From a virus, in the IMG/VR virus record IMGVR_UViG_3300019487_000001, positions 1 through 64,000 of that record: DNA of 64,000 nt; one strand, 5' to 3'. Position numbers and translations under genes: made by a program. The notes under the pieces were generated by a model. That model had not been told where the DNA came from, ran no database searches, and saw only the letters and a program-made list of their open reading frames with translations. Positions 7,149-62,720 of the stretch are shown here, piece by piece. How positions within the stretch are numbered: the stretch's first letter is position 1; every line of letters begins with the position of its first letter.

Positions 7149-7472
7149 CTAATCAGTTAATGCTTTGAATCTACCTCGGGGCCAGTTGAAGTCTTTAAAC
7201 TTCACACCTTCCCAAATCCTAACTTCTTTAAAGGGTTCAAATCCGTACTCGTTCAATACATATAAGTGGTCGACTAAACTATTCTTAGCAGGAAGCTCGT
7301 CAGTAGTAGTGAAGACTTGCGGGCGCAACTGTTTCGGATCAGCAAAGTGTTCAGGATACCACTTCCCTTCGTCCTTGTGCCACCAGTATACAGTCTTATG
7401 TTTACGGGGACCCGCTCCAGAAGACGATCTACCGTAAGCATCATGCGTGGTATCGGCCATACTGAAAATCAC
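7149..7472 (-). CDS. hypothetical protein with C-terminal RFxxL motif
   Basis: 107-aa ORF ending ..PRGRFKALTD. Confidence 0.55.
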   Translation of the reverse strand: MIFSMADTTHDAYGRSSSGAGPRKHKTVYWWHKDEGKWYPEHFADPKQLRPQVFTTTDELPAKNSLVDHLYVLNEYGFEPFKEVRIWEGVKFKDFNWPRGRFKALTD

Positions 7473-7509
7473 ATACGTCAGTACAACAAAACCTCAACCT
7501 TCTCTGTAC

Positions 7510-8037
7510 TCACGCTCGTAAAACGCGCCCATCATCTCCATCTACTCTCCACTTATAGATGCCCGTATCTGTGATCACTACATCTACCGGTCCGTACCAT
7601 ATGTAATTCATTGTTGCAGATGAGATCATCTGACACGAGAAGCCGATCGCTATTTTTGTTGCCTGAGGATTAGCATTGAATAGAGCAGAGTAGAATGGAC
7701 CCACCTTCCGAAAATTCTCGATGTCGGGATAAGCTATGTAACCATTCGGTGTGAACGCTGCTGCAGAGACCAAGATAACATCGAGTTTACCTTGGGGCTT
7801 AGTTGCTCTTCGATTGTTTTGTGGTACCCAGAGCTTCTCCGGCCAGAGGGCCTTAGAGAAGGCAAGAGATGGCTTGCGTATTGGTGGGTTGCATTCGTCA
7901 GTATAATAGGATACTACGTCTGCGGATTGGAACTCATGATTTCTACAAAGAAAGTCATTGATGTGGTGGCTCTGTTGTGCTACGTAACTGTCGGTTAAAC
8001 GCTGGGCCGCTTCTACTTCAACGCTTATTGACTGCAT
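7510..8037 (-). CDS. hypothetical protein
   Basis: 175-aa ORF. No family recognised. Confidence 0.55.
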   Translation of the reverse strand: MQSISVEVEAAQRLTDSYVAQQSHHINDFLCRNHEFQSADVVSYYTDECNPPIRKPSLAFSKALWPEKLWVPQNNRRATKPQGKLDVILVSAAAFTPNGYIAYPDIENFRKVGPFYSALFNANPQATKIAIGFSCQMISSATMNYIWYGPVDVVITDTGIYKWRVDGDDGRVLRA

Positions 8038-8112
8038 GACACGATCTCCTAATGGTTAGAGTGTCAAGGTAACAAGACGATCATAACCACTAGAGTGTCA
8101 TAGTGTCAAGTT

Positions 8113-8811
8113 TCAAATAAGACTATTAAAACGAGACTTAGGTCTACTTCTAACCTGAGCATCGTCAACCCGGAACCACCTATATATCTGCACCACCGCC
8201 GCCTCACCCAGTATCTCTACCACCTGGGCAGTGGTGAGAAAGCGGAACTTCTTTTCAGTAACCAGTTCCTGAATTTTGAGAGTTGGAGTACCAGCTACAC
8301 CCCACTTACCCTTAGCCAGATTTTGACTACTGTCGGAGTGCCACTTCATATAGTCTGAGAGTATAGGATTAGCTAGAGCAAACCCATTGGTATCAACTTT
8401 CTTGTATCCATCTACAAACGCAGCTGGAATAGGGAAAGCATATAGGTAGGCTTGAATACCCTTACTTTGGGTCTTGCTTTCGTTGTATATGAATCCGAGA
8501 GTCTTAGACTCGGAGGCTTCTTGGTTTAACCTGTCCATGTAGTTCTCGAAACTGATAACGAACTCTCTAGCAGAGAGTAACTCGTCATTAGCAAAGAACT
8601 TTTCATAGGTCACAGGTCCGAAGATATTTTTACCCATGAAGTTAGAAGCGAACTTATTAAGATCAAACTTCCAGCCTTGGGGACTACCCACGTAATGACC
8701 ATCACCATGGACCGGTTCGGGTCCAACAACGTAAGCGATCTGTTTGTTTGGATCTATGTAGTACTGAGCCTGCTTGGGATCAATCCATCTGGCTAGGGGG
8801 TCAATGAACAT
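8113..8811 (-). CDS. hypothetical protein with C-terminal RFxxL motif
   Basis: 232-aa ORF ending ..RPKSRFNSLI. Confidence 0.6.
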   Translation of the reverse strand: MFIDPLARWIDPKQAQYYIDPNKQIAYVVGPEPVHGDGHYVGSPQGWKFDLNKFASNFMGKNIFGPVTYEKFFANDELLSAREFVISFENYMDRLNQEASESKTLGFIYNESKTQSKGIQAYLYAFPIPAAFVDGYKKVDTNGFALANPILSDYMKWHSDSSQNLAKGKWGVAGTPTLKIQELVTEKKFRFLTTAQVVEILGEAAVVQIYRWFRVDDAQVRSRPKSRFNSLI

Positions 8812-8816
8812 ACTAT

Positions 8817-9332
8817 TTACCTTTGATTGGGGTTTTGTTTTGGCAAATTTTGTTTGACATTATTCGGAAACACATCTTTCAGTGTGGACTTATTATGTCC
8901 GCCAAACGGTCTATTGCCTTTGTAGTTCGGAGAGGGCTTACGATCTTTCCATTTAGGCTTAGGATAATAGGTGGGCTTACGATCTTCAGGAGCTACGTAT
9001 TCGTACCGTTGTCTTTGGACAACTGGTTTAACTTCTACTTGAATCTTATCGAGACCAAGCTTCTTAGCACAGAGCGGGCAGACTCGAATCTCTTTGGCAA
9101 TCTCCCAACCATTAGATATCTTCTTCATCATCTTAGCATTCTTGCCTCTGTTCTTAACTTCCTTCTTAATGATCTTGGTTTTGCCACCGCCGATGAAGAT
9201 CTTCTTGGTTATAATACGAGGCCGCTTGACCATATTCTCATAGGTCTTCTCCCTCTTCTCAGCGATCATAGTGATCATAGAGGTACCGGGCTTCGTAATA
9301 TATTTACAACCTACATTCTGGCACTGGTACAT
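8817..9332 (-). CDS. highly basic zinc-ribbon-like protein
   Basis: CQNVGC near the N-terminus and CPLC further on. Lys/Arg-rich throughout. The antisense plus-strand ORF 8823..9338 is judged spurious. Confidence 0.5.
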   Translation of the reverse strand: MYQCQNVGCKYITKPGTSMITMIAEKREKTYENMVKRPRIITKKIFIGGGKTKIIKKEVKNRGKNAKMMKKISNGWEIAKEIRVCPLCAKKLGLDKIQVEVKPVVQRQRYEYVAPEDRKPTYYPKPKWKDRKPSPNYKGNRPFGGHNKSTLKDVFPNNVKQNLPKQNPNQR

Positions 9333-9334
9333 GT

Positions 9335-10986: not shown

Positions 10987-11694
10987 TTACGCTGTCAAGC
11001 TTCCGAACCGGCCACCTTTTCTATCAATGTTAACCTGTTCTTTCACTTCTTCGTGTAATCTTAAGGCCTGCTCTCTAAGCGCGATGGCCTGGGCTTTGAA
11101 ATGGCTATTGATGATGACGTCTTTGCCAATCATTAGGCTGGCACTAAGTTCTTTAGCAATTTGAGTGTCAATGTCCTTGAGTAGTCTCTCTCTCGTCAAG
11201 GCATTCTCTTTCAGTTTGGCTGCTTCCAGCTGCTCAAAACTGATCTCGAGATGGCGAGCCAGTCTGTCACGGAGACCAACCACATTCTGAATGACATCGT
11301 TAACCGCAGCCGAGTTCTCGGTCACAATGTGGAAGTAGAACACTTGGACTGTAACAGAACACACCATAAGATTACGGCGACGGATCTCTTCTAGCTGACT
11401 TTCAACGAGGTCCTCGATATACTTCTTTCTGTCCCCGCTAACGACCAGACCAAAGCCTGCGTTGATACATGAGTTCTTAATAGCACGGTAGCTCCGGCTA
11501 TAGAACCGCTCGATCCACTTAGTCTCATCACGGTCCCGGAAGTGTTTAGTCTCCCGCACCACCTCGCGCTCTGGCGCAAGCTCGATCGTCTCACGTTCGA
11601 TACGCTTGGCTCTGTCAAGCTTGAAAACGGGTAACACAACGTAACAATCACTTGCTACTTTGTACTGCTGCTCTGTCGATATGGTAGTTGGCAT
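10987..11694 (-). CDS. hypothetical protein with C-terminal RFxxL motif
   Basis: 235-aa ORF ending ..RKGGRFGSLTA. Confidence 0.6.
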   Translation of the reverse strand: MPTTISTEQQYKVASDCYVVLPVFKLDRAKRIERETIELAPEREVVRETKHFRDRDETKWIERFYSRSYRAIKNSCINAGFGLVVSGDRKKYIEDLVESQLEEIRRRNLMVCSVTVQVFYFHIVTENSAAVNDVIQNVVGLRDRLARHLEISFEQLEAAKLKENALTRERLLKDIDTQIAKELSASLMIGKDVIINSHFKAQAIALREQALRLHEEVKEQVNIDRKGGRFGSLTA

Positions 11695-11702
11695 AGAACC
11701 TC

Positions 11703-13474: not shown

Positions 13475-14578
13475 TCAAGCCGGTAAAACCAGTTCGTCAA
13501 TGACGGGTGTTCCGTGCCATAGTCTTAGCTGGCCGTGCCATACTGCACCGGGTTCATCTTTTTTTCGCATCAATATATAATTCAACTGACGCCTCGTGCC
13601 AATACTCTCCGTATATAAGGATACTATACTACACCACGTACCGGAGTTAAAGTATTCACCCAGGTCCGGGATCCTCTTATAGCCAGCCTTATGGTTATGC
13701 GCCAGAACTACCAGGCCCTCGCTCTTGGCCTCTATAGCCTCACTCATCTCACGGAGAATCATTTCGGCCCTACCCTCGAGGGTGGACTGTCCTACGCTCT
13801 TTCTGAGAATGGAGTACGTCGGACGAAACTTTGACTTGACCGACATGTTCTTATTGAAGAGAGCGTTGTAGATTACAAACCATGAGATCTTTAAGCCTAG
13901 ACCGGTAAGCCAGATGGGCTTAGAGAAGAGAGTTCGGAAGATCCAGGCAGGTATAGGGCGAACGACATCTAAGTAGGGACAGTCTTGTTTGACGGGATTT
14001 AATAGGTGAGTGATCCAGTAGTATCCCCATGGTGCATCTATAATCTGGGCTGCATTTTCTTCATCCACATGCCAGAGCGATTCACCCTGTTGCCCGTGTT
14101 CTATGTGAAAGTTATCTCCGATGTAGCGAAACTTGTTATACTCAGTATACCGTTCAGGATCTATCTCCAGGAGCTTGGTAAAGAAATACCTATGTGCTTC
14201 TGCGAGAGCGAGACCCATGTCATGGTTGCCCACGATGTAACGGAACTTATGCTTTGGATTCTTAAGCCACTTAGCGATAAACTTGAAAAGTCCCAAGTGG
14301 CCACGATATACTTTGTCGAGCTGGGCAATGACGAAGGCTGCCTCGAGCTTATCAGGGAAGCCACCATCGACTGGGACCTGGAGTAGATCTAGGAAGTCAC
14401 CGTTAGCTACAAACTCAACCTCATCAGCACCAATCTTATCGGCATCATATGTAGTTAGGAGTTCGACGAGTTTGCCGTCTCGAGTGAAGTTCTCTAGAGA
14501 ATTGAGTTGGCCATTCTCGAGATAGACACCCTCCCCGATGTGGGTGTCAGAGATAACAACCTTAAAGCTTTCTCCCAT
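13475..14578 (-). CDS. calcineurin-like metallophosphoesterase
   Basis: Motifs ISDTHIG (DxH), ANGDFLD (GD), GNHDMG (GNHD), and later EHGQ and AHNH histidines. Start overlaps the RT stop by 17 nt. Confidence 0.8.
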   Translation of the reverse strand: MGESFKVVISDTHIGEGVYLENGQLNSLENFTRDGKLVELLTTYDADKIGADEVEFVANGDFLDLLQVPVDGGFPDKLEAAFVIAQLDKVYRGHLGLFKFIAKWLKNPKHKFRYIVGNHDMGLALAEAHRYFFTKLLEIDPERYTEYNKFRYIGDNFHIEHGQQGESLWHVDEENAAQIIDAPWGYYWITHLLNPVKQDCPYLDVVRPIPAWIFRTLFSKPIWLTGLGLKISWFVIYNALFNKNMSVKSKFRPTYSILRKSVGQSTLEGRAEMILREMSEAIEAKSEGLVVLAHNHKAGYKRIPDLGEYFNSGTWCSIVSLYTESIGTRRQLNYILMRKKDEPGAVWHGQLRLWHGTPVIDELVLPA

Positions 14579-16540: not shown

Positions 16541-16957
16541 CTACAAATCTAGGTTACTAAACCTTCCCTTGGCTTTGTTCTTTCTGGTCTTCCTAAACGG
16601 TTTGGGCTTATGTTTATTAAGCCTTACTTCGTAGCGTTCTGTGTGAGCCCTAACCGTAGCCTTGATCATCTGATCTCTCTCTTTGCCAGTAAGGTTCTTG
16701 ACATCAGCTCTATTGGTAACGTGGAGGATAGCTTTCCAATCTATGCAACGATGAACCCTATTAGCAGTAGAAGGGTTATACTCATGAAACTTCCTGCACG
16801 CTAACATTTCCTGATGAACAAGTTGCTGTATCTTGGGGCAAAACCAAGCCACGTCCTCGTCACTATAGACCAAAGCTTGTGGCCTAAAGATACAGTTACC
16901 ACAGAGTCTGGGGATACGTATGATCTTATTGTTCGACTCGGTTTTACTATTAGACAC
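16541..16957 (-). CDS. Cys-containing hypothetical protein with C-terminal RFxxL motif
   Basis: 138-aa ORF ending ..KAKGRFSNLDL. Confidence 0.55.
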   Translation of the reverse strand: MSNSKTESNNKIIRIPRLCGNCIFRPQALVYSDEDVAWFCPKIQQLVHQEMLACRKFHEYNPSTANRVHRCIDWKAILHVTNRADVKNLTGKERDQMIKATVRAHTERYEVRLNKHKPKPFRKTRKNKAKGRFSNLDL

Positions 16958-16965
16958 AGCTCACC

Positions 16966-17564: not shown

Positions 17565-18128
17565 TTAAGAATGCTTAAGGAATTCAAGTACTTGCTTAAG
17601 ATCTTTCCACACAAGCTTCTTGGCATCGGGATTCCTTAAAAGGTAAGCCGGGTGATACGTGTATGTAACAGGCCACGTAGCATAATAACTGAGGCTGCCA
17701 CGTTGCTTAGAGATTTTGAAGTCGTTAGGTTCATTGAACCGGCGCCCCGCCGTGGCGCCAAGGGCGATAATAATCTTCGGGTTGACCAGCTGAATCTGTT
17801 CATCCAAATAGCGACGACAAGCTGCAATCTCTATAGGATCTGGCACCCTATTCTCAGGGGGTCGACATTTAACTACGTTGGTGATATAAACCTGATCACG
17901 TTGATAACCCATGGCTTCGATCATCTTGGTTAATAGATCACCGGCCCGACCTACGAATGGCAGACCTTGTTGATCTTCATTGTAACCGGGACCCTCACCA
18001 ACAAACATGATGTCAGGATTTATAGGACCAGTTCCAAAGACAGTATTCCTGCGCGTCTCGCATAGTATACAGTTGCGACACTTGCTTACAGTGCGGGCTA
18101 GCTCGATTAGCGATTGTTCCGCGTTCAT
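17565..18128 (-). CDS. udg: uracil-DNA glycosylase, family 4
   Basis: CRNCILC Fe-S cysteines, GEGPG, FVGRAG, VKCRPPENR, HPAYLLRNP. Confidence 0.9.
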   Translation of the reverse strand: MNAEQSLIELARTVSKCRNCILCETRRNTVFGTGPINPDIMFVGEGPGYNEDQQGLPFVGRAGDLLTKMIEAMGYQRDQVYITNVVKCRPPENRVPDPIEIAACRRYLDEQIQLVNPKIIIALGATAGRRFNEPNDFKISKQRGSLSYYATWPVTYTYHPAYLLRNPDAKKLVWKDLKQVLEFLKHS

Positions 18129-18604
18129 TACGGTACTAACTTATCGAAGCGACTGACCGCTTCTTCTTCCTTAGGACTAGTTGCTTTTGTAACCATATCA
18201 TGAACCATATTTGCATCGAGTCTATGCCCACAGCGGGCACAGTTAAAGAGAGAGAAAATTCTGGTAAAAACTGACACTTGTTTTAAGAATTCATTCAGAG
18301 TATCTAGATGTTTACGGGCATCAGATTCATTCAGATTGTTTTGCTTAATACCTTCTGTAGTACATCGAATCATTTCGTGCACCTGTGAAATTCGTGGATT
18401 GGTATTAAGTTTCTCTTGTAAAGTATCCAGTACAATCATTAGGTTAACATAATGACTTATGCGACCTGCAGTACTAGCATTAACCTCTTTTTGGGCACGA
18501 GCCATGTGTGATCCAATGAACCTGCGAGCTTCGGCAAGCTGGTAAAGACTATTCTTTATATAACTCTCCCAATCAAAGAGAGGCATATTAGGATCTACAG
18601 CCAT
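18128..18604 (-). CDS. hypothetical protein with C-terminal RFxxL motif
   Basis: 158-aa ORF ending ..AVSRFDKLVP. Confidence 0.55.
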   Translation of the reverse strand: MAVDPNMPLFDWESYIKNSLYQLAEARRFIGSHMARAQKEVNASTAGRISHYVNLMIVLDTLQEKLNTNPRISQVHEMIRCTTEGIKQNNLNESDARKHLDTLNEFLKQVSVFTRIFSLFNCARCGHRLDANMVHDMVTKATSPKEEEAVSRFDKLVP

Positions 18605-22689: not shown

Positions 22690-23187
22690 TCATAGCCCTG
22701 AGCTACCGAATCCCTTCTCGCCACGCTCAGTTTCACTGAGTCGTGAGACTTCTTCAATTATAACACCAAAATCGTTTTTAAGCAATACGATTTGGCCTAT
22801 GCGGTCGCCTTTTTTGATAACGAAATTTTTTTCTGAATTTGCCGCAGGCCGGGGGTCTAAAGCAAAGCCGATCTCACCCCTATAATCCGTGTCTATGACG
22901 CCATGATGGCCGCAGCTGATCGCATTCTTCATAGCTAACCCGCTACGTCCAAACAGGATACCAAAGTAGCCTGGGGGGAATTCTATAGCGATACCGGTGC
23001 CTATAAAGATACGGTCTCCCAGATGCAGAGAATCTATCTTTACCGCATCACGTTGACCGCCCCTAACGCCGTTGGCGTAGTGAATCTCTATGCTATGGGC
23101 ATAGAGGTCAAATCCAGCAGATCCCTCGGTAGCCTTGGTTGGTAACTTGGAATCTTCGAAAAATCTAAAAACTTTCAGGTTCATCAT
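22690..23187 (-). CDS. dut: dUTP diphosphatase
   Basis: GSAGFDLYA, GDRIGQIVL, C-terminal ERGEKGFGSSG motif V. Confidence 0.9.
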   Translation of the reverse strand: MMNLKVFRFFEDSKLPTKATEGSAGFDLYAHSIEIHYANGVRGGQRDAVKIDSLHLGDRIFIGTGIAIEFPPGYFGILFGRSGLAMKNAISCGHHGVIDTDYRGEIGFALDPRPAANSEKNFVIKKGDRIGQIVLLKNDFGVIIEEVSRLSETERGEKGFGSSGL

Positions 23188-23627
23188 ATAATTAATGTCC
23201 CAAATCTGGTTAAGGTTTTAGGATCTTTAGCTAGGCCTCTTATAACAAAATCTTCTTGTGTGGCTACGTGCAACAAGGACAACGGACATTTCTCTGAATT
23301 TGCCAAGTTTCTAGGGAAAAAACGTATAAAACCAAAGCTAGGATCGCTGTAACTAAATTCTATCAAAATGCCGAGTTCGAAAGATGATGGGATCGTGTCA
23401 CCTCTTGCGCCAGGTGGATGGTATACTACGGCCTGACCAAGCTTAAACGGTCCTGATTCTTTTATGCTAGCGTTTTCCTTCTCAATAACTTCAAGACACA
23501 AATTGCGGAAAAGAAACCAATCTTCTCGATCTGTCTTTGACCGTATATCCATTACCTTGGCCCTTACAGATTTACGCCATAATTCTTCGGTGGTTTGTGT
23601 CATTGCCCAACTTTCGGACGCCACCAT
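23184..23627 (-). CDS. hypothetical protein with C-terminal RFxxL motif
   Basis: 147-aa ORF ending ..KTLTRFGTLII. Confidence 0.55.
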   Translation of the reverse strand: MVASESWAMTQTTEELWRKSVRAKVMDIRSKTDREDWFLFRNLCLEVIEKENASIKESGPFKLGQAVVYHPPGARGDTIPSSFELGILIEFSYSDPSFGFIRFFPRNLANSEKCPLSLLHVATQEDFVIRGLAKDPKTLTRFGTLII

Positions 23628-35157: not shown

Positions 35158-35658
35158 TTATAGGCTGAACCTGTAAAATATAATAGACTCTGTACCTGCC
35201 CAGGTGCCATAACGAGAAACAAGCTCGCTAGAGCATTGTGGGCTTAACTTATTTGCTAGCACATAGAAGTGCAGGTATTCATGTACCAGGGTTTTAAACT
35301 GTGATCTTAACACGTTCTCGTGTCCCGGACCCCAGCTCCAACCGTCTTTAACATAGATACGATTACCTACTTCGTCATAGCAACCGTTAATAGGGTCTAC
35401 GTTGAGCTCATCGCTCTCTTCGACTTTACAAGCCTCAACTAGAGTTTTGGTGGGAAGATACTCCACAATGGGTGGCATAAGATTATAGTTGACGTTACAA
35501 CGCGATTTCCACGGCTCTTTGCCAAGAGCACGGTGAATTACATGCTTTGCTGTTTCACGTGCCTGGAACTCTTTATCAGCCATATTGGCTAGCTGAGTTC
35601 TTACACTTACGCAACTTAAGGTTGCGCATAGAAACATTATTGCGCATAGTTTTTTCAT
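35158..35658 (-). CDS. lipoprotein with HExxH motif (paralog B)
   Basis: Start taken at MKKLCAIMFLCATLSC. Contains LVHEYLHFYVL. Confidence 0.55.
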   Translation of the reverse strand: MKKLCAIMFLCATLSCVSVRTQLANMADKEFQARETAKHVIHRALGKEPWKSRCNVNYNLMPPIVEYLPTKTLVEACKVEESDELNVDPINGCYDEVGNRIYVKDGWSWGPGHENVLRSQFKTLVHEYLHFYVLANKLSPQCSSELVSRYGTWAGTESIIFYRFSL

Positions 35659-38327: not shown

Positions 38328-38531
38328 TTACACCAATGAGGAGAATCGTGTTTTCTCTTTCCTTGGAACCGGCTGTTCGCCTAGCCTACGGCCTTTAGCG
38401 TGGCAGTCTAGACAAAAAACCGATTCATCTTGGTCTCTCTGTGCACCACAACCTCGACAACGTTGGTTACTCCAGAACGGACCATCATTTTCATCGTCGT
38501 CGTAGTGGTCTCTGAAATCTTGCGTTCCCAT
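38328..38531 (-). CDS. zinc-ribbon protein with C-terminal RFxxL motif
   Basis: CRGCGA..CLDCH. Ends ..KEKTRFSSLV. Confidence 0.5.
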   Translation of the reverse strand: MGTQDFRDHYDDDENDGPFWSNQRCRGCGAQRDQDESVFCLDCHAKGRRLGEQPVPRKEKTRFSSLV

Positions 38532-46315: not shown

Positions 46316-46765
46316 TTACAATAACGAATTAAATCTTTCGGTTATGCGTTCGGAAACCTCTTCGCCCATACCTATGGTATCCAACTTGACACACCCTAGA
46401 CAGCCATTCTGTTCGAAGAAGCTCATGAGCTTAAGAGCATCCTCCTCGCTCATATTCCGCCATTCTTCTATGACAGGCCGATTTTGGGATTCCACAAAAC
46501 TCTTACATTCCTTGAGTGCACTTAGGAATTGAGCTGCCAATCTAGCGTTGCTAGCCTGACGCAGGGACTTAATAACACCAATGATGTGACCATCTGTACG
46601 AATATCTTCGTACAACTTGAGCTTAAATATAAAGCGTCTAGTCTTTTGAGTTTCTTCGATCTCTTTCATGAGAGCGGTGGCAACCTGGGTGTCAACAACA
46701 CACGCAGCCACGTCTTTACACAGAGTGAGTAGCCGTTCTAATTGACCAGGTGTTACGTATGCCAC
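46316..46765 (-). CDS. hypothetical protein with C-terminal RFxxL motif
   Basis: 149-aa ORF ending ..RITERFNSLL. Confidence 0.55.
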   Translation of the reverse strand: MAYVTPGQLERLLTLCKDVAACVVDTQVATALMKEIEETQKTRRFIFKLKLYEDIRTDGHIIGVIKSLRQASNARLAAQFLSALKECKSFVESQNRPVIEEWRNMSEEDALKLMSFFEQNGCLGCVKLDTIGMGEEVSERITERFNSLL

Positions 46766-47245: not shown

Positions 47246-47608
47246 TCACTTCTGTACGAGTGAACGGAATCGTTTGGTTTCAGGTAGCAATCCGGCTGCA
47301 CTTAATACATCTTCAGAGCTAATTAAGAACGCTTTACCCTTGGGGAGTTTAGAGACAAGCTTATCTTTGACCTGCTGATAAAGTTCAACGGCAAGCTTAT
47401 CGCTCTCGGTGGCATCTGCTACTAAGGCTAGTGCCAGCTGCGCTGGCCCTGAGCCACCATAGCCCCATTCAAAACCATCCGGAGAATGATTTCTTAAATC
47501 TAATCTCCATGGTAATACGTCTTGAAGGCTATGCCTGAAATCTTTTACGGTAACGATCCGTGAAGATGGATCGCTCTCATAGACTTTATGTAGATTATAG
47601 ATAGACAT
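47246..47608 (-). CDS. hypothetical protein (DUF6166-like core) with C-terminal RFxxL motif
   Basis: HSPDGFEWGYGGSGPAQLALAL core. Ends ..ETKRFRSLVQK. Confidence 0.5.
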   Translation of the reverse strand: MSIYNLHKVYESDPSSRIVTVKDFRHSLQDVLPWRLDLRNHSPDGFEWGYGGSGPAQLALALVADATESDKLAVELYQQVKDKLVSKLPKGKAFLISSEDVLSAAGLLPETKRFRSLVQK

Positions 47609-48025: not shown

Positions 48026-48544
48026 CTATTCGTGATACGGTATAGATAACTCTACCATGTCATCTACCATGTCAGCTAAAAGACTGAATCTAGTAGGTTC
48101 ATAGAGAACACTTTGTAAACCCAACAGTTTCTCACGATCCTGTTGTTGAATACTACACCAATTTTTTACTATAGAACGTGAGCCATGAACACAGGCGGGC
48201 ATATACCAATGCATCCACTTGATCCAATCCGTAAGACACTTACCGTTGATCCAGTCAGCCTGGTAGGCAGTGTCGATCAGGTCGTGAGAGAACAGGGCTG
48301 TCTGAAATCCTCCGCCAGGTATACCACATAAAAAATATAGGAGAATACCATGGCGCATCTCCTGGTTAGGCATCTCGGTTACATGTAGTAGATCGAGGAG
48401 TTTTTGATGAACTAGAATCTTAGCGCCTGGGGCCAGATCCTTTCTTGATACATATATGGCAGCAACCTGGCTCTGCAAAATGGATTTCTTGGATTCCACG
48501 TTCTCCACAGTAGAGACAGGTGTCTCGGGTTCCGTGTTTTTCAT
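48026..48544 (-). CDS. hypothetical protein
   Basis: 172-aa ORF. Confidence 0.55.
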   Translation of the reverse strand: MKNTEPETPVSTVENVESKKSILQSQVAAIYVSRKDLAPGAKILVHQKLLDLLHVTEMPNQEMRHGILLYFLCGIPGGGFQTALFSHDLIDTAYQADWINGKCLTDWIKWMHWYMPACVHGSRSIVKNWCSIQQQDREKLLGLQSVLYEPTRFSLLADMVDDMVELSIPYHE

Positions 48545-50705: not shown

Positions 50706-51179
50706 CTAGCCTCCTGGACTTATAATATAGAATCTATCATCAAGTAATGGTTCGATTGCTGGCTTCACTATTTTTTGCCAATCAAGTCTACCATTTCCAC
50801 AGCCAGGCCTAGGTATAACTATTTTTTGTAGTTCTGTGATCGAAGCAATCCTAGAGATTTGACGACATGAATCTAGAATAAGATCTAAGTCAGCGTCATC
50901 TCCCCAGTGGTATTTAACAGGAAAACTAAGGACAGCAGTTGTGAATGGCTTTTCGGAAGTTGGTCGTATTGTGTGGAATCCTAAGAAGTGAACTATGTTA
51001 CCAGCCTTCTTGATACGCTGCCCAAGGGTTAAGTCAATACCAGGGAATAGCTTAGTCGCTTCCAGAGCACAGCCTCTACCCATGACACAAGCACCATCCT
51101 TACGGACGATACCATTAGTTGTTATACAGATAGCGTCAGCCATAGGCTGGTAAAATAGATTACCGGTTATCTCGATCAT
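50706..51179 (-). CDS. macro-domain (ADP-ribose binding/hydrolase) protein
   Basis: Start taken at MIEITGNLF. DAICITTNG..GACVMGRGCA and RPGCGNG are macro-like motifs. Confidence 0.6.
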   Translation of the reverse strand: MIEITGNLFYQPMADAICITTNGIVRKDGACVMGRGCALEATKLFPGIDLTLGQRIKKAGNIVHFLGFHTIRPTSEKPFTTAVLSFPVKYHWGDDADLDLILDSCRQISRIASITELQKIVIPRPGCGNGRLDWQKIVKPAIEPLLDDRFYIISPGG

Positions 51180-51516
51180 AAAAGATCTCCACTGGTTTAC
51201 CGAGCTCTCGAGCAAACTCTAGGGCACTTAGAGTTCCACGACTCTTACCGTCCCAAAATGCTACGACTTTATCAGCCGCAGCAACAATATCTCTATTACG
51301 TGCTATGGGGGCATAGCGGCCAGGATATTTATTATAATCAGGTTTATAAATCTCGCATGTGATGCCAAGCGCACGGGCTTGCTCTTCACCAGCTGAGTCA
51401 ACTCCACGTGCACTACCGGATACTAAGATATCACCATCACAAAAGTTATCGTGTACATAGGTATGAACACGACTAAGGTCACTGAAATCTCTAGAGCCAA
51501 TAATCGCAATCTTCAT
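51160..51516 (-). CDS. SLOG-fold DUF2493/YspA-like protein
   Basis: ATG at 51516 follows GAGGAG. Motifs KIAIIGSRDF, VSGSARGVDS, APIARNRDIV, VAFWDGKSRGT. Confidence 0.7.
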   Translation of the reverse strand: MKIAIIGSRDFSDLSRVHTYVHDNFCDGDILVSGSARGVDSAGEEQARALGITCEIYKPDYNKYPGRYAPIARNRDIVAAADKVVAFWDGKSRGTLSALEFARELGKPVEIFYDRDNR

Positions 51517-55562: not shown

Positions 55563-55982
55563 CTACTCTTGAGAGGCAGCCAAGGATTTAGCCTTCAGCG
55601 TGAAACGCGCTTCCGGATCCTTAGCAAGGCTCTGAATCTCACGAGCCACGATCTCAGTCCGGTACCCTTTGGTACCTTCCTTCGTATCGAACTCACGAGT
55701 CTTCAGTTTGCCGATCACGCGGATGAACGCGCCCTTGGCGAGTTTCTCCGTGATCTGTTCGGCAAGGCCTTCCCAAGCGGTAATGCGGTGCCACTCGGGT
55801 TCGGTCTCAACTTCCTTGCCTTCGACTGTGAAACGCTCACGCGTACACAGGCTGAAGGTAGCAAGTTTCTTACCCGATTCAGGGAATTCCCTGACTTCGG
55901 GCGCACCGCCGATATTACCCACTAACTCAACATGATTGTTGGTGCGGGCATAGTGCGCTTGTTTGTCTGTCTGTTCACTCAT
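55563..55982 (-). CDS. ssb: OB-fold single-stranded DNA-binding protein
   Basis: NHVELVGNIGGAPEVR, WHRITAWEGLAE, IRVIGKLKTREF. It lacks the usual acidic DDDIPF tip. Confidence 0.85.
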   Translation of the reverse strand: MSEQTDKQAHYARTNNHVELVGNIGGAPEVREFPESGKKLATFSLCTRERFTVEGKEVETEPEWHRITAWEGLAEQITEKLAKGAFIRVIGKLKTREFDTKEGTKGYRTEIVAREIQSLAKDPEARFTLKAKSLAASQE

Positions 55983-57699: not shown

Positions 57700-58880
57700 C
57701 TCCTTGTTTTGCTACTCACGAAATTGTGAGGAGCGTTGTGAATAGATAGATACTAGAAACACAAGCGGTCAAAAGGGATGACAAATATGTGGCAGAGCTT
57801 GCTGGCGAAGGGGTCTTCTTGTATAGCGTAGCGAAACAAGAAGACAGCCGTGATCCGGCGGAGACACAGTATCCGCCGGAGCGAAGGCGGTCCCGAGCCA
57901 ATGCAAGTGAATGCCAAGCGGGGCTGCACCTCCTAGCGAAGCGTTGAGGTGCAGCCGAGAGCGCATATTTGGCATAGAGAGCGAGGAAATTCAAATGCGC
58001 AGCATTTAATTTCTGAGCGAATGACCTTTTGCTTAGCGCGTCACCTTGAGAACAACGCGACGAGCAGGTAGCAAAAGAAGTGAGGACTATCACATGGTCT
58101 AGGTAAACCAGCGACCACGTGAGTCTCAGCCATGGGACTTAAGAAATCCATGAGTCTTGCATTACAGGGATAATGCAAGACCGTAGGGCACGAGAGCCTG
58201 TAGGCGTCCCCGTAAGTCAGGCGCAGCCTAACTGAAGGCCCCGGAACAAAGTGCAGGGGTTGTGAGCGATGAGACAATCGCGAGCAAGGCGAGAGTAGCG
58301 CGTTAGCAGGGAGATCGACCGAGCCGTGTGTCAACCCCAGAGCAACGCAGTGGCGTTGGTTGGGGTCCAACGAATAGAAGGATCTATTCTTGCACACGGC
58401 GAATTGATCGACTTGCTAAAAGCGATACGATGCCCGGGTTTCTCAGTTAGAGCGAACGCAGTGAGCTTGTACCTAGTAGGTAGGGAGTGAGCGACAAATG
58501 GCGAGCGCCGCAAGGCCCGAGCCAGCCCGTTGCCGAAGGCAAAAGGGCCTTTAGTTTGTAGCCGAATGCACGGGTGGAGTGTTGACCAAGCAAGCGCACA
58601 CCATGGCGTAAACGCAGTGGCACGCGCAGCGACTCAACGACGGAACCGGTGCAGAGGCAGTGCTCACGAATAGGCCGCTTAGGACAAGCGACCGCAGTGA
58701 GAGCGCAGCGTAACGCTGCGGGAGTAGGACAGTTTGGTATTAGTGTCTATAAGCGAGGCTGGAAGAGCAAGCGGAGCGGCTCGTTCCAGCCAGCGCAGAC
58801 CCTGAATGTAAGCAAAGAGTCTTAGGGCTTGGGTGAGTAACAAAGCGCAGCTTTGTACGAACCTCAAGCCAGGTCGGCGA
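57700..58880. other. hairpin-dense, GC/purine-skewed non-coding block A
   Basis: Perfect stems at 57813-57845 (10 bp), 57854-57880 (9), 57922-57956 (11), 58154-58181 (11), 58334-58366 (6+5), 58372-58389 (7), 58530-58542, 58704-58720 (7), 58757-58791 (8+4), 58841-58855. The plus strand is T-poor. The only ORFs are Ser/Arg/Ala/Cys-rich artefacts. Confidence 0.6.
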
Positions 58881-58883
58881 GGA

Positions 58884-59153
58884 CTATTGTCCTCTCCTCC
58901 GTTGTAACTCTCTGGCTATAGCCAAACAGATAGCGATGTTATCAGTACACTCAGGTGAGTCACTATGGTCTTTGACCAAGGTACCAAGACCATCAACAAG
59001 GCGTCTAAAGAGCGCCTTGGTAGGGAACAGTGACGCAGCGAGTCCGAATACATCAAGTCCACCCACCACCCCAGCCGGGGCGGGCGTGGACTGGCCATCC
59101 ATATCCGAATCTTCAAACACACTAGTAGATATAACAGTAGTATTCTCTTTCAT
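58884..59153 (-). CDS. hypothetical protein
   Basis: Start taken at MKENTTV (ATG 59153). Ordinary composition, unlike the flanking blocks. Confidence 0.45.
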   Translation of the reverse strand: MKENTTVISTSVFEDSDMDGQSTPAPAGVVGGLDVFGLAASLFPTKALFRRLVDGLGTLVKDHSDSPECTDNIAICLAIARELQRRRGQ

Positions 59154-59305
59154 AAGTATAGTAACTCCATAGTAAGAGAGGATACTCAAGTACCCTCAGG
59201 TTTTAGAACCCAATGTCACCCTATGTGACACTAGGTTTATAAAGAAAATACATTAATTTTGACTGAAATCGAGTCAGAAGAGTACGCATAGCGTACGTTC
59301 ATAAG

Positions 59306-59345
59306 AAAAACCCAATGTAACCATGGTGTTACAAGGGTTTTTCTT
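59306..59345. terminator. bidirectional intrinsic terminator
   Basis: aaaaaccc-aa-tgtaac-catggt-gttaca-a-gggttttt. A-run on one side and T-run on the other. Confidence 0.55.
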
Positions 59346-59349
59346 TAGT

Positions 59350-60100
59350 AGTACTGGTGTCAACGAGACACATACACCTGGTCCGCCAACTTCTAAGCCC
59401 CCGGTTTAGACCCTACACCTACCTCAACGGACAATTCCATTGTCTCTATGTGGGTAGGGGTATAAGAGGGTCTAACAAACCACCCCACGCGGCGGGGCAG
59501 GGTAACGAGGTAGCACAGGGGGGTATGTTTCACATGGCAATCTGTAGATGACATGTGAAAGGTGAAACGAATCGTGGAGAGCGAAGCTCGAACGAGTCGT
59601 GAACCCCAGCGCAGCCGAAGGCAAGCGCAGCATACAGCACCCCCGCAGGGGGTGTATCCCCTAAGTGCGTACATAACCCAGTACGCCGCAGGGACTAGAA
59701 GGGCGAAGGCATGGTTTTGCCTGGCAAAACTAATGCCTGAGCCCAGGTAAGGTACTACGTGGAACGTAGTACATGGAGAGCATGAACGTAGTGAATGCAT
59801 ATAGTGAGCCCAGAGGGCGAACAAGGCGAAGGCATGACTTTTGCGTAAGCAAAAGGCATGACTGAGCCCATGTAGCACTCGTAGGGTGCGGAATGATGAG
59901 GCGAGCGCCGTAGGCGCGAGCCATAGAGATGAGCCCATAGGGCGAATCAATGTATATAGAGCTGCAACAGTACCACTAGAGCGAGGGAACGTAGTGACCG
60001 AGCGTATGCTACGCTATGTACTACATCCCCTCGCTTCAAGTACTATGCAGCGAGCCCCGAAGGGGCGAGCGGGGGTGGTGTTGTGTACTACATACACACC
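59350..60100. other. hairpin-dense non-coding block B
   Basis: Stems at 59531-59557, 59579-59589, 59638-59654 (7 bp), 59667-59686, 59752-59772 (9), 59838-59855 (7, GTAA loop), 59905-59917, 59980-60035 (8+5+6 nested), 60054-60066. TGAGCCCA occurs at 59738, 59805, 59863 and 59930. Confidence 0.6.
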
Positions 60101-60790: not shown

Positions 60791-61288
60791 CTCTCTTAGG
60801 AAGTTACACCGAGTTCTTAGGAACTGACAGTCTTTATATTGAGTCTTATAAGAGAATACCGGGATCTTATTCTTTAGCTAGAGTGTAGATCTAGGATAAT
60901 AACCACTAGGGTTTTCATGTAAGTTTTTTATTCCCTCCGCCCTTTGCTAAATTGTTTCCTATGTATAAGTGTTCTTTTTTAGGGTGATTATCTCATATAA
61001 ACTAATCTAAGTGCTCTTTTTAGAGCTTTTATGTGGAGGGACTTTCAACCCATCCCCCGGCCTTTGGTTCGGAAGACTCAGTGAAACTCTGTCTTGGGTG
61101 CAAAGACGTCCAGTGAGTTAAGGTACAATATACTGGACCTTAGCTAGCTTATTGTCCAATATATGATACCTTAAAGCTTCGGGGTTTAGTGTTTACAGTT
61201 CACAGTTAACTGTAAACTTTGGTGTAAACTTTTGCCGTTAAGTGGCTTATTGGAAAGAGTATTTTCCTTTACATGGCGACAAAGGGTC

Positions 61289-61317
61289 TTGTGTTTTTGT
61301 AGGGTGTGTTCTATAAT
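61289..61317 (+). promoter_or_regulatory. sigma70-like promoter of the rightward operon
   Basis: TTGTGT-17 nt-TATAAT, 25 nt upstream of the AGGAGG-ATG at 61342. Confidence 0.5.
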
Positions 61318-61341
61318 GCGAAGAAAAGCTCTAGGAGGTTT

Positions 61342-61830
61342 ATGAGCGACTATGTTCAAATTCTAGACATCCCGTATTTCCAGAAGAGGTACAAGCTTCT
61401 CATGTTTAGTGGGGAGTATGACCCCATGGTGGGGGAGGCTAGGATAGCCTGTGACTATGGGGAAGAAGGATCCGGAAACCCGGATGAGATGGTGTTCTCA
61501 ATACAAGTCGTAAATGATCAGGAGCCCCCTTTGAAAGACAAAGAGAAGGAGCCCTACTTCATTATTGTTCCTAGGCAGTCCTATATGCCCCCGGCGGCGC
61601 AGAAGGAGCTTACGGATGTTACCTATGAGATTGAGGAGCTCTTTCGGGGATTGAATAATGATTCGAATACGAAAGACTGGATGAGTGGAAAGTATGGTGC
61701 ACGTCTTAAGAATATCGGATGGGTACCAGTAGAGTTTAGTAGGATCTTTGAAGTCCATCATGAAGAGTTGGACTTTAAGTCCGTGGGACAGTTGGAACTT
61801 GGCAAGGGGAGATTCGGTAGTCTACTTTAG
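61342..61830 (+). CDS. hypothetical protein with C-terminal RFxxL motif
   Basis: Start taken at the ATG after AGGAGG (the track starts at GTG 61306). Ends ..LGKGRFGSLL. Confidence 0.6.
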   Translation: MSDYVQILDIPYFQKRYKLLMFSGEYDPMVGEARIACDYGEEGSGNPDEMVFSIQVVNDQEPPLKDKEKEPYFIIVPRQSYMPPAAQKELTDVTYEIEELFRGLNNDSNTKDWMSGKYGARLKNIGWVPVEFSRIFEVHHEELDFKSVGQLELGKGRFGSLL

Positions 61831-61847
61831 ACACACGGAGTGATTAT

Positions 61848-62321
61848 ATGGCTGCGAAAGACTTTATGCCCTGGGATGCGCAAAATATGGACAAAGAGCT
61901 AGTCGAGTCCGATGGGTATTGGGACTTAATCAATCGTGCACGCGAGCAGCAACAAAGGCAACTCGAGAGAACCAGAAATAGTGTAGAAGCTATGGTAGCT
62001 GATTTCTTGAGTGACCGTTCAGATAGACAGAAGAATACAGAAAGTGCTGAGAATATTTGTGTTGGGGTCCACAAAATGCTACAGGACTTAAGAGATTCTG
62101 GAATGCTGCCCAAGGGTCGTTACCATGTAGAGTGTCATGACTTAGAGCCTGGTAGGCTGAATGTAAAAGTGGTTCTTAGTCCACCGATGGATGCTATCAA
62201 TTTGGACGTTATTATAGACGAGGCTCGTGGTAAGTCTAAAAGCAGGGATATTATCCTGTGTAGCACGCCGGTTGAGCCCGAAGCGAAACCCAAGAACAGA
62301 TTCAAGGAGCTGCTCTTTTAA
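61848..62321 (+). CDS. hypothetical protein with C-terminal RFxxL motif
   Basis: 157-aa ORF ending ..KPKNRFKELLF. Confidence 0.6.
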   Translation: MAAKDFMPWDAQNMDKELVESDGYWDLINRAREQQQRQLERTRNSVEAMVADFLSDRSDRQKNTESAENICVGVHKMLQDLRDSGMLPKGRYHVECHDLEPGRLNVKVVLSPPMDAINLDVIIDEARGKSKSRDIILCSTPVEPEAKPKNRFKELLF

Positions 62322-62324
62322 GAT

Positions 62325-62720
62325 ATGATGGATTTACTTTTACCAATTATAACTAGCCCGTTCGCCCCTTGGGGGTTGTGTTTTATTACCATACTGTGGG
62401 TAGGGCATCGTGCGAACTACAAGATACATCGGATGATGTTTCATAGGCGTGAGCTTGAAAGACGTATAGACACACTAAGTAGCGAAGTTGCTACCTTGAA
62501 CCAACAGGCGCGAATTATGGCTGATGCCGTGTCGGGTTACCACGAGATTGGTCGTGGCCTTAGTGAGCTTGAAAGGACTATTCCTTGGCAGGAGCTACAG
62601 GTTGCAGTAAGGACATATGTGCAGGCCGAGAGAGCAAGGATTGGGGCTGAAGCGGTGGAAAGGGACCGATCAGAAGGAAGCCCACCCTCCGGCAGGTTTG
62701 GAAATTTAGTTGACGGCTAG
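62325..62720 (+). CDS. membrane-anchored coiled-coil protein with C-terminal RFxxL motif
   Basis: N-terminal TM segment. Ends ..PPSGRFGNLVDG. Confidence 0.6.
   Translation: MMDLLLPIITSPFAPWGLCFITILWVGHRANYKIHRMMFHRRELERRIDTLSSEVATLNQQARIMADAVSGYHEIGRGLSELERTIPWQELQVAVRTYVQAERARIGAEAVERDRSEGSPPSGRFGNLVDG

Follow-up and report, generated by a model that had tools for sequence, protein, structure and literature searches.

The MIM1 motifs at the C-termini of ESCRT-III proteins recruit Vps4 and other MIT-domain proteins. Clamp-binding peptides include the bacterial beta-clamp motif QL[SD]LF and the gp45-binding C-terminal tails of T4 gp43, gp33 and gp55. HbYX tails attach PAN, Cdc48 and Mpa to the 20S proteasome, the C-terminus of HslU (EDLSRFIL) docks on HslV, and encapsulin cargo-loading peptides are C-terminal tags of the type ...GSL... 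with a consensus that includes neither R nor F. Unstructured C-terminal tails with a hydrophobic ending, such as those of ssrA and MuA, are typical degrons. For MIT-binding MIM1 peptides, a core of R-[FYIL]-x-x-L-[LV] has been defined experimentally (PMC12057046), and FxsB-type enzymes are described as forming cyclophanes (PMC10114670).

Here we describe a C-terminal tag of the form [G/T/N/S]-R-F-x-[S/K/N]-L-[V/L/I], found on about one gene in ten (counted over 83 kb) of an uncultivated phage of ~195 kb. The window, i.e. the whole stretch of 64,000 nucleotides that was analysed, belongs to a metagenomic phage contig of 194.5 kb, 83 kb of which are covered by our tag survey. Like MIM1, the tag follows a flexible linker at the very end of the protein, could form a short amphipathic helix, and occurs in a protein set linked to an AAA-ATPase system; moreover, 10 of 16 phage tails match the MIM1 core. 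However, only 1 of the 16 has the upstream [DE][LIF]x{2,3} half, no MIT domain was found in the 83 kb, the AAA ATPase of the phage clade bears the motif instead of reading it, and the tagged proteins are mutually unrelated, whereas ESCRT-III is a single polymer-forming family. The clamp peptides offer the precedent of functionally different proteins from one genome sharing a short hydrophobic, often C-terminal peptide for one hub; the phage clade replicates with a DnaE-type polymerase, and several tagged proteins resemble nucleic-acid binders (WGR, zinc ribbons, reverse transcriptase). Nonetheless, the Q-based consensus matches none of the 16 tails, the 83 kb examined revealed no clamp gene, and the DnaE C-termini of related phages (…GAFMRKL…) lack R-hydrophobic-x-x-hydrophobic.

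HbYX and HslU tails show that the C-terminus of a ring unfoldase can dock into the pockets of a self-compartmentalised peptidase, by a motif that several proteins can share, and the phage likewise has a Cdc48-like ATPase and, syntenic with it, a ClpP-family peptidase. Yet HbYX or RF.L-COOH spacing is found in none of the 16 tails, the peptidase has the ClpP rather than the Ntn fold, far more proteins are tagged in the phage, and the ATPase in the window is untagged. An earlier note on this DNA had likened the tag to encapsulin cargo peptides. What stands of this likeness is a portable C-terminal tag on unrelated proteins, a flexible linker and a Leu anchor; it is weak, with G-S-L in only 2 of 16 tails, the invariant R and F foreign to the encapsulin consensus, and implausible cargo in the tagged set: one member is probably a membrane protein, and relatives tag a hexameric ATPase. 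FxSxx-COOH precursors and triceptides are similar in having an aromatic-x-x unit near the C-terminus, here adjoining a radical-SAM/SPASM-like gene, but in the phage, proteins of full size would be the substrates, FxSxx-COOH fits only 4 of 16 tails, and the aromatic is dispensable across the clade.

Results

The earlier note had listed 12 ORFs ending in RF..L plus 1-3 residues, and translation reproduces all 12. Those on the minus strand are 7149..7472 (103-107 aa, GRFKALTD), 8113..8811 (232 aa, SRFNSLI), 10987..11694 (235 aa, GRFGSLTA), 16541..16957 (138 aa, Cys-rich with a very basic linker, GRFSNLDL), 18128..18604 (158 aa with a CxxC, SRFDKLVP), 23184..23627 (139-147 aa, TRFGTLII), 38328..38531 (67 aa, zinc-ribbon-like, TRFSSLV), 46316..46765 (149 aa, ERFNSLL) and 47246..47608 (120 aa, with a DUF6166 domain at residues 1-104 and an unstructured tail ...PETKRFRSLVQK). 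Those on the plus strand are 61342..61830 (162 aa, GRFGSLL), 61848..62321 (157 aa, NRFKELLF) and 62325..62720 (131 aa, GRFGNLVDG). Public gene calls include 11 of the 12, placing the start of 7149..7472 at 7460 (103 aa) and that of 23184..23627 further in (139 aa); the missing ORF, 38328..38531, fits exactly into the gap between two called genes.

An extra instance on the minus strand, 48026..48544 (172 aa), has a longer tail, ...PTRFSLLADMVDDMVELSIPYHE, in which RFSLL is followed by 16 further residues, an arrangement conserved in its orthologue. Five more instances lie just beyond the window edges on the same contig, giving 18 tags in the 83 kb (window, flanks and the one longer tail). A tagged WGR protein (GNRFFHLV) crosses the left edge of the window (-311 to 78) and adjoins the radical-SAM gene described below, and a possible variant, DDRFYIISPGG, terminates a 169-aa product on the minus strand (50706..51215), with DDRFYIITWG in its orthologue. 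Tagged genes occur both in the leftward block and in a rightward operon that opens with 61342..61830, has tags on its first three genes and extends into the large terminase. The product of 62325..62720 has an N-terminal hydrophobic segment (residues 8-26; Kyte-Doolittle 19-residue mean 1.69) followed by a coiled coil, and is therefore a probable membrane protein.

The tag is real, and stronger than first reported. Among 591 six-frame ORFs of at least 30 aa, RF..L occurs within 5 residues of the stop in only 13, namely the 12 noted ORFs and one 34-aa shadow ORF (20369-20473). Greedy calling of ORFs from 50 aa upwards in the window gave 126 (19,021 residues), with 15 RF..L matches in total, 12 of which stand 1-3 residues before the C-terminus. 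Per-protein residue shuffling gave a mean of 0.17 such tails and a maximum of 3 over 5000 trials; the earlier note had estimated well under one. Enrichment over shuffled sequence holds in the 83 kb as well: 15 of 163 ORFs have RF..L within the last 15 residues (0.49 expected; 0 of 1000 shuffles as high), compared with 1 match at control residues -45 to -30 and 0 at residues 10-25. R and F never vary among the 17 copies; K, W or L replaces neither of them. Codon usage differs between copies, as had been claimed, with all six Arg (AGA, AGG, CGT, CGC, CGA, CGG), both Phe (TTC, TTT) and all six Leu codons (TTA, TTG, CTT, CTC, CTA, CTG) in use, and the DNA downstream of the tags is unrelated from copy to copy; it is therefore the peptide that is conserved, not a DNA repeat. 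An explanation by chance, by faulty ORF calling or by a DNA or RNA signal close to stop codons has only the shortness of the motif in its favour. Given shuffles that never reach the observed counts, a single shadow ORF among 591, scrambled synonymous codons, unrelated downstream DNA and conservation in orthologues, this explanation is effectively refuted.

P, G, K, S, T and N abound in the residues preceding the tag, and AlphaFold models place the tag on a predicted unstructured tail, with low-confidence coil at residues 105-120 of the DUF6166 protein and 564-600 of an AAA ATPase homologue (mean pLDDT of the models, 84-85). The distance from tag to free carboxylate ranges from 0 to 16 residues, and the tails of the window phage are mostly net basic (+1 to +4), with three hydrophobic residues each.

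Every orthologue found retains the tag, down to about 30% identity. Orthologues of the 8113 ORF at 57% (P0241) and about 30% identity (P0242) have the tails NRFNNLL and NRFRNLI, and P224, R227, F228 and L231 are invariant in the alignment while other C-terminal residues drift. A 77% orthologue of the 10987 ORF, in L009, terminates in GRFKNLDSMI, a 65% orthologue of the DUF6166 ORF at 47246 (P0002) retains TRFRSL, and the 48026 ORF shares R, F, L and ADM with a 35% orthologue in L004 (KRFDRLADM). The tag is missing from 118 of 120 DUF6166 homologues, the 118 being those outside the lineage, and is therefore a portable add-on. Together with a tagged gene of L009 (56-580, KRFWNLL) that has no counterpart in the window phage, these sequence comparisons show modular gain of the tag.

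Of 31 related loci, 10 show C-terminal enrichment of a looser motif, R-[FWYIL]-x-x-[LIMV] (p<0.05), and all 10 are within the syntenic clade. In L013, L016, L017 and L039, respectively, 8 of 41, 6 of 38, 6 of 31 and 4 of 20 ORFs have R[FWY]..[LIMV] in their last 15 residues, with about 0.3-0.4 expected in each case. Enrichment was not seen in the syntenic relatives L007, L014, L024, L025 and L034, so the tag system is not universal in the clade. The form of the tag across the clade is R-hydrophobic-x-x-hydrophobic(-hydrophobic), and conserved tagged families comprise the AAA ATPase and clusters 15, 30/34, 32 and 36/43; replication-module neighbours and a reverse transcriptase also bear the tag in relatives. 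In cluster 15 the residue after Arg is F, I, L, M or A, and the hydrophobics at i+3 and i+4 are retained. This dispensability of the aromatic fits a binding helix better than a site of chemical modification.

The AAA ATPase of the window (2857..4662, minus strand, 601 aa) is a tandem D1-D2 enzyme by structural match to p97/Cdc48 (TM 0.55-0.59, E about 1e-22), has no separate peptide-binding N domain, and ends, untagged, in DLGSIELKPKETNKKSSH. The C-terminus of 61 of its 120 closest homologues consists of a K-rich linker and [DN]RF[S][D][LI]. That the ATPase is tagged in relatives does not suggest that it is the receptor; the earlier note had named it among the candidate partners, but it rather has the look of another client or of an unfoldase that docks. 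In 16 loci and in the window phage, a ClpP-family gene lies within about 5 kb of the ATPase gene; its Ser-His-Asp triad is invariant, and it has an INSPGG motif. It is located in the replication block, not beside head genes, and the gene directly after it is tagged in several genomes (clusters 30/34). NCBIfam scores its product at 87 and 81 bits as a ClpP-related head-maturation protease and at 76 bits as ClpP, all three below the cut-offs. The phage also encodes a trypsin-like protease.

Twenty of 31 loci contain a clade-conserved radical-SAM gene (93..1055 in the window, minus strand) that encodes CxxxCxxCY and a SPASM/twitch-like Cys hairpin; tagged genes flank it directly in at least 8 genomes, the window phage included. 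Its best NCBIfam votes are weak (cyclophane-forming AmcB, for 5 of 20 members, and other peptide maturases; E about 1e-3), and a sequence search of the PDB gave no match. The Fe-S motif begins at residue 30, and there is no N-terminal leader-recognition domain.

Discussion

We propose, with moderate confidence, that the tag is a portable, tethered C-terminal docking peptide for one common receptor, which is probably encoded by the phage itself and conserved in this clade of ~200-kb phages. The earlier argument that a shared C-terminal motif implies a common partner gains support from retention in orthologues, absence from the 118 DUF6166 homologues, the disordered tail and recurrence in relatives. 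Of the roles that had been suggested (docking peptide, capsid cargo peptide, degron, membrane tail), the cargo peptide has a weak encapsulin likeness, the membrane tail is a poor fit and the degron is still live. Of the candidate receptor domains, MIT, PDZ, TPR and clamp domains were found neither in the 83 kb examined nor in the Pfam calls on record, and searches with the conserved neighbouring families c1, c4 and c10 detected no homology. The untagged ATPase of the window phage counts against docking, and the frequent G, S or N at the x-x positions, poor helix formers, count against a helical mode of binding, in favour of which stands the match of 10 of 16 tails to the core of MIM1, a known helical motif.

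The receptor could be the ClpP-family peptidase, on which the tail would dock in the manner of HbYX tails on 20S or of the HslU C-terminus (…SRFIL) on HslV. By this tail the Cdc48-like ATPase would sit on the peptidase, whose pockets would also take up the other tagged proteins, acting as regulators, adaptors or self-delivering substrates. The p97/Cdc48-like architecture of the ATPase, the tag that follows a K-rich disordered linker at its very end in relatives, the nearby ClpP-family gene and the tagged gene right after it speak for this candidate, although it is an unlikely one: none of the 18 tags of the window phage is on its own ATPase, NCBIfam slightly favours a head-maturation protease, and some relatives have both genes without tag enrichment. 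To our knowledge, a Cdc48-type/ClpP pairing is not known, and eighteen or more caps per peptidase have no precedent. Rather unlikely, too, is a C-terminal degron by which an AAA+ protease (the phage Cdc48-like ATPase or host ClpXP, Lon or FtsH) clears certain phage proteins at a set stage of infection. Unstructured, hydrophobic-ended tails, the phage-encoded unfoldase, peptidase and trypsin-like protease, and the many small, accessory genes in the tagged set all suit such a role, but in relatives the tag is found on several conserved core proteins and on the unfoldase itself, its spacing from the free carboxylate is variable, no tail resembles LAA-COOH, and genes in the leftward block and the terminase operon do not form one temporal class.

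Packaging is quite improbable as the function of the tag. A peptide that attaches its bearers to the procapsid interior (capsid protein, scaffold or ClpP-like prohead protease), for packaging and injection, would account for a C-terminal tag on a flexible linker of small unrelated proteins, the F-G-S-L of some tails, the head-maturation score of the ClpP-family gene and the three tagged genes at the start of the terminase-bound operon; it sits badly with the rarity of GSL, the probable membrane protein, the ~600-aa hexameric ATPase, reverse transcriptase and replication-module neighbours tagged in relatives, and a ClpP-family gene in the replication block instead of next to head genes. We give still less credence to a site of recognition or covalent modification by the radical-SAM/SPASM-like enzyme, e.g. 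to a three-residue aromatic-to-C-beta cyclophane as in Xye/Grr/Fxs. The occurrence of the enzyme gene, its peptide-maturase votes, its tagged neighbours, the four tails that fit F-x-S-x-x-COOH and the cyclophane chemistry of FxsB-type enzymes (PMC10114670) are consistent with it. Conversely, the E-values are poor, the PDB search found no match, the enzyme lacks a leader-recognition domain, its substrates would be folded proteins of 67-600 aa, and some relatives have the enzyme without tag enrichment; the chemistry is ruled out in cluster 15 members with I, L, M or A for the aromatic and in tails with Gly as the third residue. A short amphipathic membrane-targeting tail of the MinD/FtsA type is unlikely, indeed highly so. 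Basic tails with three hydrophobic residues would suit it, but three are few, a lipid surface would not enforce an invariant R and F, homologous tails in relatives are acidic (DNRFSDL, RFTDLEL, RWEQLEL), and one tagged protein already has a membrane anchor.

Returning to the docking peptide, we infer a helical mode of binding to a single receptor of phage origin. A flexible linker tethers the tag to globular domains that are otherwise unrelated, and the Arg and the hydrophobics at i, i+3 and i+4 would form about one turn of an amphipathic helix that inserts into one common receptor pocket. Many phage proteins may thereby be recruited to one place or machine, and in related phages the Cdc48-like unfoldase may be recruited as well.

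Enrichment of a C-terminal tag

All 12 of the open reading frames (ORFs) that the earlier note had described as sharing a C-terminal R-F-x-x-L tag translate with the tails listed there. Of the 591 six-frame ORFs in the window, only 13 place RF..L no more than five residues from the stop codon, namely these 12 and a 34-aa shadow ORF; of the 15 RF..L occurrences in the 126 called ORFs, 12 are terminal. The rough estimate that chance would produce fewer than one such occurrence was borne out by shuffling, which gives 0.17 expected occurrences against the 12 observed, with a maximum of three in 5000 trials. Conservation is indeed at the protein level rather than that of a DNA repeat, as had been proposed: all six Arg, both Phe and all six Leu codons are used, and the downstream DNA is unrelated between copies.

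Exact protein matches place the window within ENA metagenome contig ERZ27251177:k141_1470228 (194,511 bp), with window position equal to record position minus 53,659. We read ~10 kb on each side of the window, such that 83 kb of the 194.5 kb were covered in all. The flanks encode proteins with the tags TPRFKKLV, NNRFRSLIWE, GNRFFHLV (a WGR-domain protein), ETRFKKLL, and QRFMEL followed by 11 further residues, and an extra tagged ORF with a longer tail (TRFSLLADM…) lies inside the window at 48026-48544. Across the 83 kb, RF..L occurs in the last 15 residues of 15 of 163 ORFs, against 0.49 expected; control positions give counts of 1 and 0. The 17 copies that we aligned have the consensus [G/T/N/S]-R-F-x-[S/K/N]-L-[V/L/I/T], with R, F and L invariant in 17 of 17, and the linker ahead of the tag is rich in P, G and K. 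These counts confirm and considerably extend the original observation. In a limited search of the literature, we came across no account of this tag in phages.

Retention in orthologues and modularity

The tagged proteins are nearly orphans. A search of 1.84 billion representative proteins gave just two relatives of the 232-aa protein encoded at 8113-8811; both are tagged (NRFNNLL, 57% identity; NRFRNLI, ~30%), and P224, R227, F228 and L231 are invariant in their alignment. Three further orthologue pairs come from short contigs of a related phage (SRR8996939): the orthologue of 10987-11694 ends in GRFKNLDSMI, that of the DUF6166 protein (47246-47608) in TRFRSLTPGVNGQ, and that of 48026-48544 (35% identity) in KRFDRLADM. 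The same contigs have an additional tagged gene (KRFWNLL) with no counterpart in the window phage. The tail is under purifying selection, with neighbouring residues drifting. Among the best 120 homologues of the DUF6166 protein, the remaining 118 lack such a tail, and the tag has been added to this widespread domain in this lineage only. In an AlphaFold model of the DUF6166 protein (102 sequences, mean pLDDT 84), residues 1-104 are folded, with no PDB match to the fold, and the tagged tail is a low-confidence coil.

Searches of GenBank phages found no DNA-level match to the window (megablast, 40 kb of the window) and, by tblastn with 16 concatenated tagged proteins, nothing beyond DUF6166 in the uncultured 595-kb phage LR756511.1. 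Scans of IMG/VR with the 10987 ORF and with the SRAP protein yielded no relatives, and a scan by TerL yielded a single distant locus.

The tag on a Cdc48-like ATPase

The 601-aa AAA ATPase encoded at 2857-4662 has thousands of homologues, and many of the best 120 (40-48% identity) are on contigs of 160-207 kb. Sixty-one of these 120 are tagged, with a disordered, K-rich linker ahead of [D/N]-R-F-[S]-[D/E/N]-[L/I] and then 0-15 residues (e.g. VDNRFSDL, TKRFSNLV, GRFKELDLN). From the window ATPase, which ends in DLGSIELK…, the motif has been lost. Modelling of a tagged homologue (mean pLDDT 85.5) gives two AAA domains in tandem, the first (D1) degenerate, with D1-D2 of p97/Cdc48/NVL as the best PDB matches in Foldseek; the model has no additional N-terminal peptide-binding domain, and its tail is unstructured. 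We considered docking of the tail in cis and rejected it, the tail being merely disordered in the model. The suggestion that this ATPase is the partner of the tag is not favoured, given that it is tagged itself in relatives and has no peptide-binding N domain; it is more likely to be a co-client or a docking unfoldase.

The ATPase gene is always followed by a DUF1257-like gene encoding 134 aa (2440-2844). The family is spread widely over uncultivated phage contigs of ~200 kb, with more distant members in Corndog-like mycobacteriophages. Corndog itself is uninformative, with R-aromatic tails in 2 of 45 cases and an untagged ATPase.

Clade-wide distribution and variation

We collected ATPase loci from six metagenomic and 26 IMG/VR contigs, 31 of which entered the locus comparison. 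Their shared gene order is ClpP, Whirly, RNase H, exonuclease, three unknown genes, ATPase, DUF1257-like, radical SAM and, further along, RNR, RecA, PHP and DnaE. The motif extends to these related phages: in several loci R[FWY]..[LIMV] is strongly enriched among the 15 C-terminal residues, occurring there in 8/41, 6/38, 6/31 and 4/20 ORFs, compared to ~0.3-0.4 expected in each case. A more relaxed pattern, R-[FWYIL]-x-x-[LIMV], reaches p<0.05 in 10 of the 31 loci, all of them inside the syntenic clade; in a phyletic comparison, the presence of no conserved cluster distinguishes tag-positive from tag-negative loci.

The ATPase is not the only conserved family with the tag; several others have it. 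The family after ClpP has the tails IRWGQLEF, NRFSGLEL and DRFTDLEL. Two families flank the radical-SAM gene: SRWHNLI and SRFSMIEI belong to the one before it, SRWWQIMNED and TRFEKIL… to the one after it, to which the tagged WGR protein corresponds by position in the window phage. Cluster 15, a family two genes upstream of the ATPase, has SRFLNMMDE, KRISDILEG, DRLASVVE and DRMAAVME. The general form of the tag, clearest in cluster 15, appears to be R-hydrophobic-x-x-hydrophobic-hydrophobic, and the cluster 15 variants indicate that the aromatic residue is a local preference. The window phage has the strictest dialect, with R-F only.

One relative (L007) has five tandem DUF8296 paralogues at 1-1729, all with a similar …F-x-[EQK]-I-A-D-x-I-E-[EK]-Q-L tail, a second, distinct shared C-terminal pattern.

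A probable docking motif with a proposed common receptor

The tag bears the signature of a short linear docking motif, and most likely is one, recognised by a single receptor: its Arg is invariant, with hydrophobic positions i, i+3 and i+4; its tether is flexible; the proteins that carry it have unrelated folds; and purifying selection is specific to the tail. The common partner that the earlier note had proposed is supported by this linear-motif signature, as well as by orthologue retention, modularity and the disordered tail. We propose that many unrelated proteins would be bound via the tethered tail to a common receptor, which would be phage-encoded and co-evolving with the tag. Such a receptor is favoured by tails that vary between genomes (F/W versus I/L; basic flanks in the window phage, acidic in relatives) yet are coherent within each.

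MIT domains are three-helix bundles classically found at the N-terminus of AAA ATPases. An MIT receptor in the N-terminus of the present ATPase was rejected, since the AlphaFold model comprises D1-D2 only and the Foldseek matches are p97/Cdc48/NVL; no scanned or precomputed gene has a Pfam match to an MIT domain. The experimentally defined core of the MIT-binding motif MIM1, R-[FYIL]-x-x-L-[LV], binds MIT domains as a short helix (PMC12057046). Ten of 16 phage tails fit this core near the C-terminus, and one of 16 fits the full MIM1, [DE][LIF]x{2,3}R[FYIL]xxL[LV]. The likeness may illustrate how the tag works, and is not proof of family membership.

None of the 16 tails fits the clamp-binding consensus Q-[LIVMF]-x(1,2)-[LIVM]-[FLI] (beta-clamp/T4 gp45). 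A search for a sliding clamp gene, which covered 83 kb of the contig and ~10 kb downstream of DnaE in relatives, found none; the 387-aa gene after DnaE encodes a metallophosphoesterase, and the DnaE tails of relatives lack the motif. No PDZ domain was found on the trypsin-like protease (26442-27305). For the radical-SAM enzyme and three conserved neighbouring families (c1, c4 and c10), Pfam, PHROG, NCBIfam and PDB searches returned nothing usable.

Alternative functions for the tag

The tail might instead dock on the ClpP-family peptidase encoded at L003 12656-13327, in the left flank (window ~-2283 to -1612). This peptidase (cluster 7, 16 loci) has an INSPGG motif and an invariant Ser-His-Asp triad and is syntenic with the Cdc48-like ATPase, their physical pairing being only putative, and a Cdc48-like unfoldase with a terminal tail would recall HbYX and HslU. 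Nonetheless, we consider docking on the peptidase unlikely: the window ATPase has no tail, none of the 16 tails has HbYX (hydrophobic-Tyr-x-COOH) or the HslU-type RF.L-COOH at its extreme end, and the score of the peptidase is slightly higher against a head-maturation protease than against ClpP. That the tag is a degron is possible, if somewhat more doubtful again. A degron fits poorly with a tag on the unfoldase itself and on conserved core proteins, and with tags in two transcription units; moreover, no tail of 16 ends in AA, as an ssrA-type LAA-COOH degron would, and the distance from tag to C-terminus varies.

We regard a capsid-loading peptide as improbable, since the tagged proteins include a probable membrane protein and relatives' ATPases, and G-S-L is rare among the tails, with an encapsulin-type G-S-L C-terminal peptide in just 2 of 16. 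Hardly better is the prospect that the tag is a modification site for the radical-SAM enzyme (93-1055), which has a clade-conserved CxxxCxxCY, a SPASM/twitch-like Cys hairpin and no PDB sequence match. The gene neighbourhood and weak NCBIfam matches (E ~1e-3) to peptide-modifying and cyclophane-forming maturases speak for such modification, but the aromatic is dispensable across the clade: triceptide substrates would all need an aromatic-x-x unit with a C-beta-bearing third residue, yet cluster 15 has I, L, M or A in the aromatic position, some tails have Gly as the third residue, and only 4 of 16 tails fit FxSxx-COOH. Least credible of all is a membrane-targeting tail, given that homologous tails are acidic in relatives and that the tolerance of K/R and hydrophobic swaps seen in the basic amphipathic helices of MinD/FtsA-type tails is absent, with R and F invariant in 17 of 17 copies.

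Implications of a probable shared docking peptide

Shared docking peptides are known for a few hubs, among them sliding clamps, MIT domains, proteasome caps and encapsulins. The tag described here is probably a shared terminal docking peptide that is unusual in scale. One tag on ~10% of phage genes, conserved in a clade of which no member has been cultured, would outline a new interaction network of otherwise unannotated proteins, and the identity of the receptor would give dozens of orphan genes a common context. A bolder reading, which we put forward as speculation with the odds against it, is that this clade of uncultivated ~200-kb phages has its own address-tag system, in which a C-terminal peptide routes a tenth of the proteome and a Cdc48-like unfoldase to one phage-built machine. 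In its striking version, this may be a virus-encoded, proteasome-like unfolding and proteolysis complex of the Cdc48-like ATPase and ClpP-family peptidase, with clients defined by the tag; alternatively, it may be a tag-addressed viral compartment or factory. If the receptor were the ATPase/peptidase pair, the phage would encode a targeted proteolysis or unfolding system. The tag is also a direct experimental handle, since the receptor should be retrievable with a single synthetic peptide, as well as a searchable marker of the phage clade and a candidate portable targeting tag.

Other features of the genome

The window (GC ~45%) is a single long leftward block, mainly of small genes, with a rightward operon from ~61.3 kb; no 12-mer, such as a promoter, is found four or more times. 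The 83 kb encode class II RNR, RecA, SSB, Whirly, dUTPase, UDG, a reverse transcriptase, the 601-aa AAA ATPase, the ClpP-family peptidase, MetAP and a trypsin-like protease, together with CCA/poly(A) polymerase, RlaP, transaldolase, PfkB, Fic and the radical-SAM enzyme. Several of these are unusual for a phage: the trypsin-like serine protease (26442-27305), MetAP with an N-terminal extension (28971-29876), CCA-adding/poly(A) polymerase with an HD domain (30409-31764) and RlaP nucleotidyltransferase (35655-37520). RRM, SpoVG and cold-shock-domain proteins are encoded in the window, yet tRNA genes are absent. The ClpP-family peptidase has a very basic C-terminal tail, and its gene is in the replication block, not beside head genes.

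The reverse transcriptase (14562-15551) is clade-conserved, with relatives at L006 1617-2988 and L013 1305-2712; in relatives an HNH endonuclease follows it, some of these reverse transcriptases have an R-aromatic C-terminal tail, and Rfam detects no retron or group II intron RNA. In the SSB (55563-55982), residues 16-118 form an OB fold; the protein is without the canonical acidic DDDIPF-type tip and ends in …KDPEARFTLKAKSLAASQE, an off-register RF-x-L.

At the strand switch, 57700-60100 (on to ~61300) is an ORF-poor stretch of ~2.5-3.5 kb that is GC-rich (~0.52) and purine-skewed, with many short hairpins, loosely repeated GAGCGAAGGC-like units and no tRNAs. Rfam finds nothing there at gathering thresholds; the sole match at E<=1, to Clostridiales-1 (59468-59606, E=0.23, 20.9 bits versus a 48-bit cut-off), is at chance level. 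This stretch may be one or more large structured RNAs, or a regulatory or origin region.

The Fic-domain gene at L002 10980-11971 (window ~63757-64748) is directly preceded on the same strand by the 94-aa ORF with the TPRFKKLV tag, a layout that recalls a Fic toxin and its small partner. The right flank also reaches a large terminase (PHROG match), indicating a tailed phage. The N-terminal half of this ~1010-aa protein (L002 17478-20357; window ~70255-73134, outside the window) also matches PHROGs for helicase and endonuclease, suggesting an insertion or fusion.
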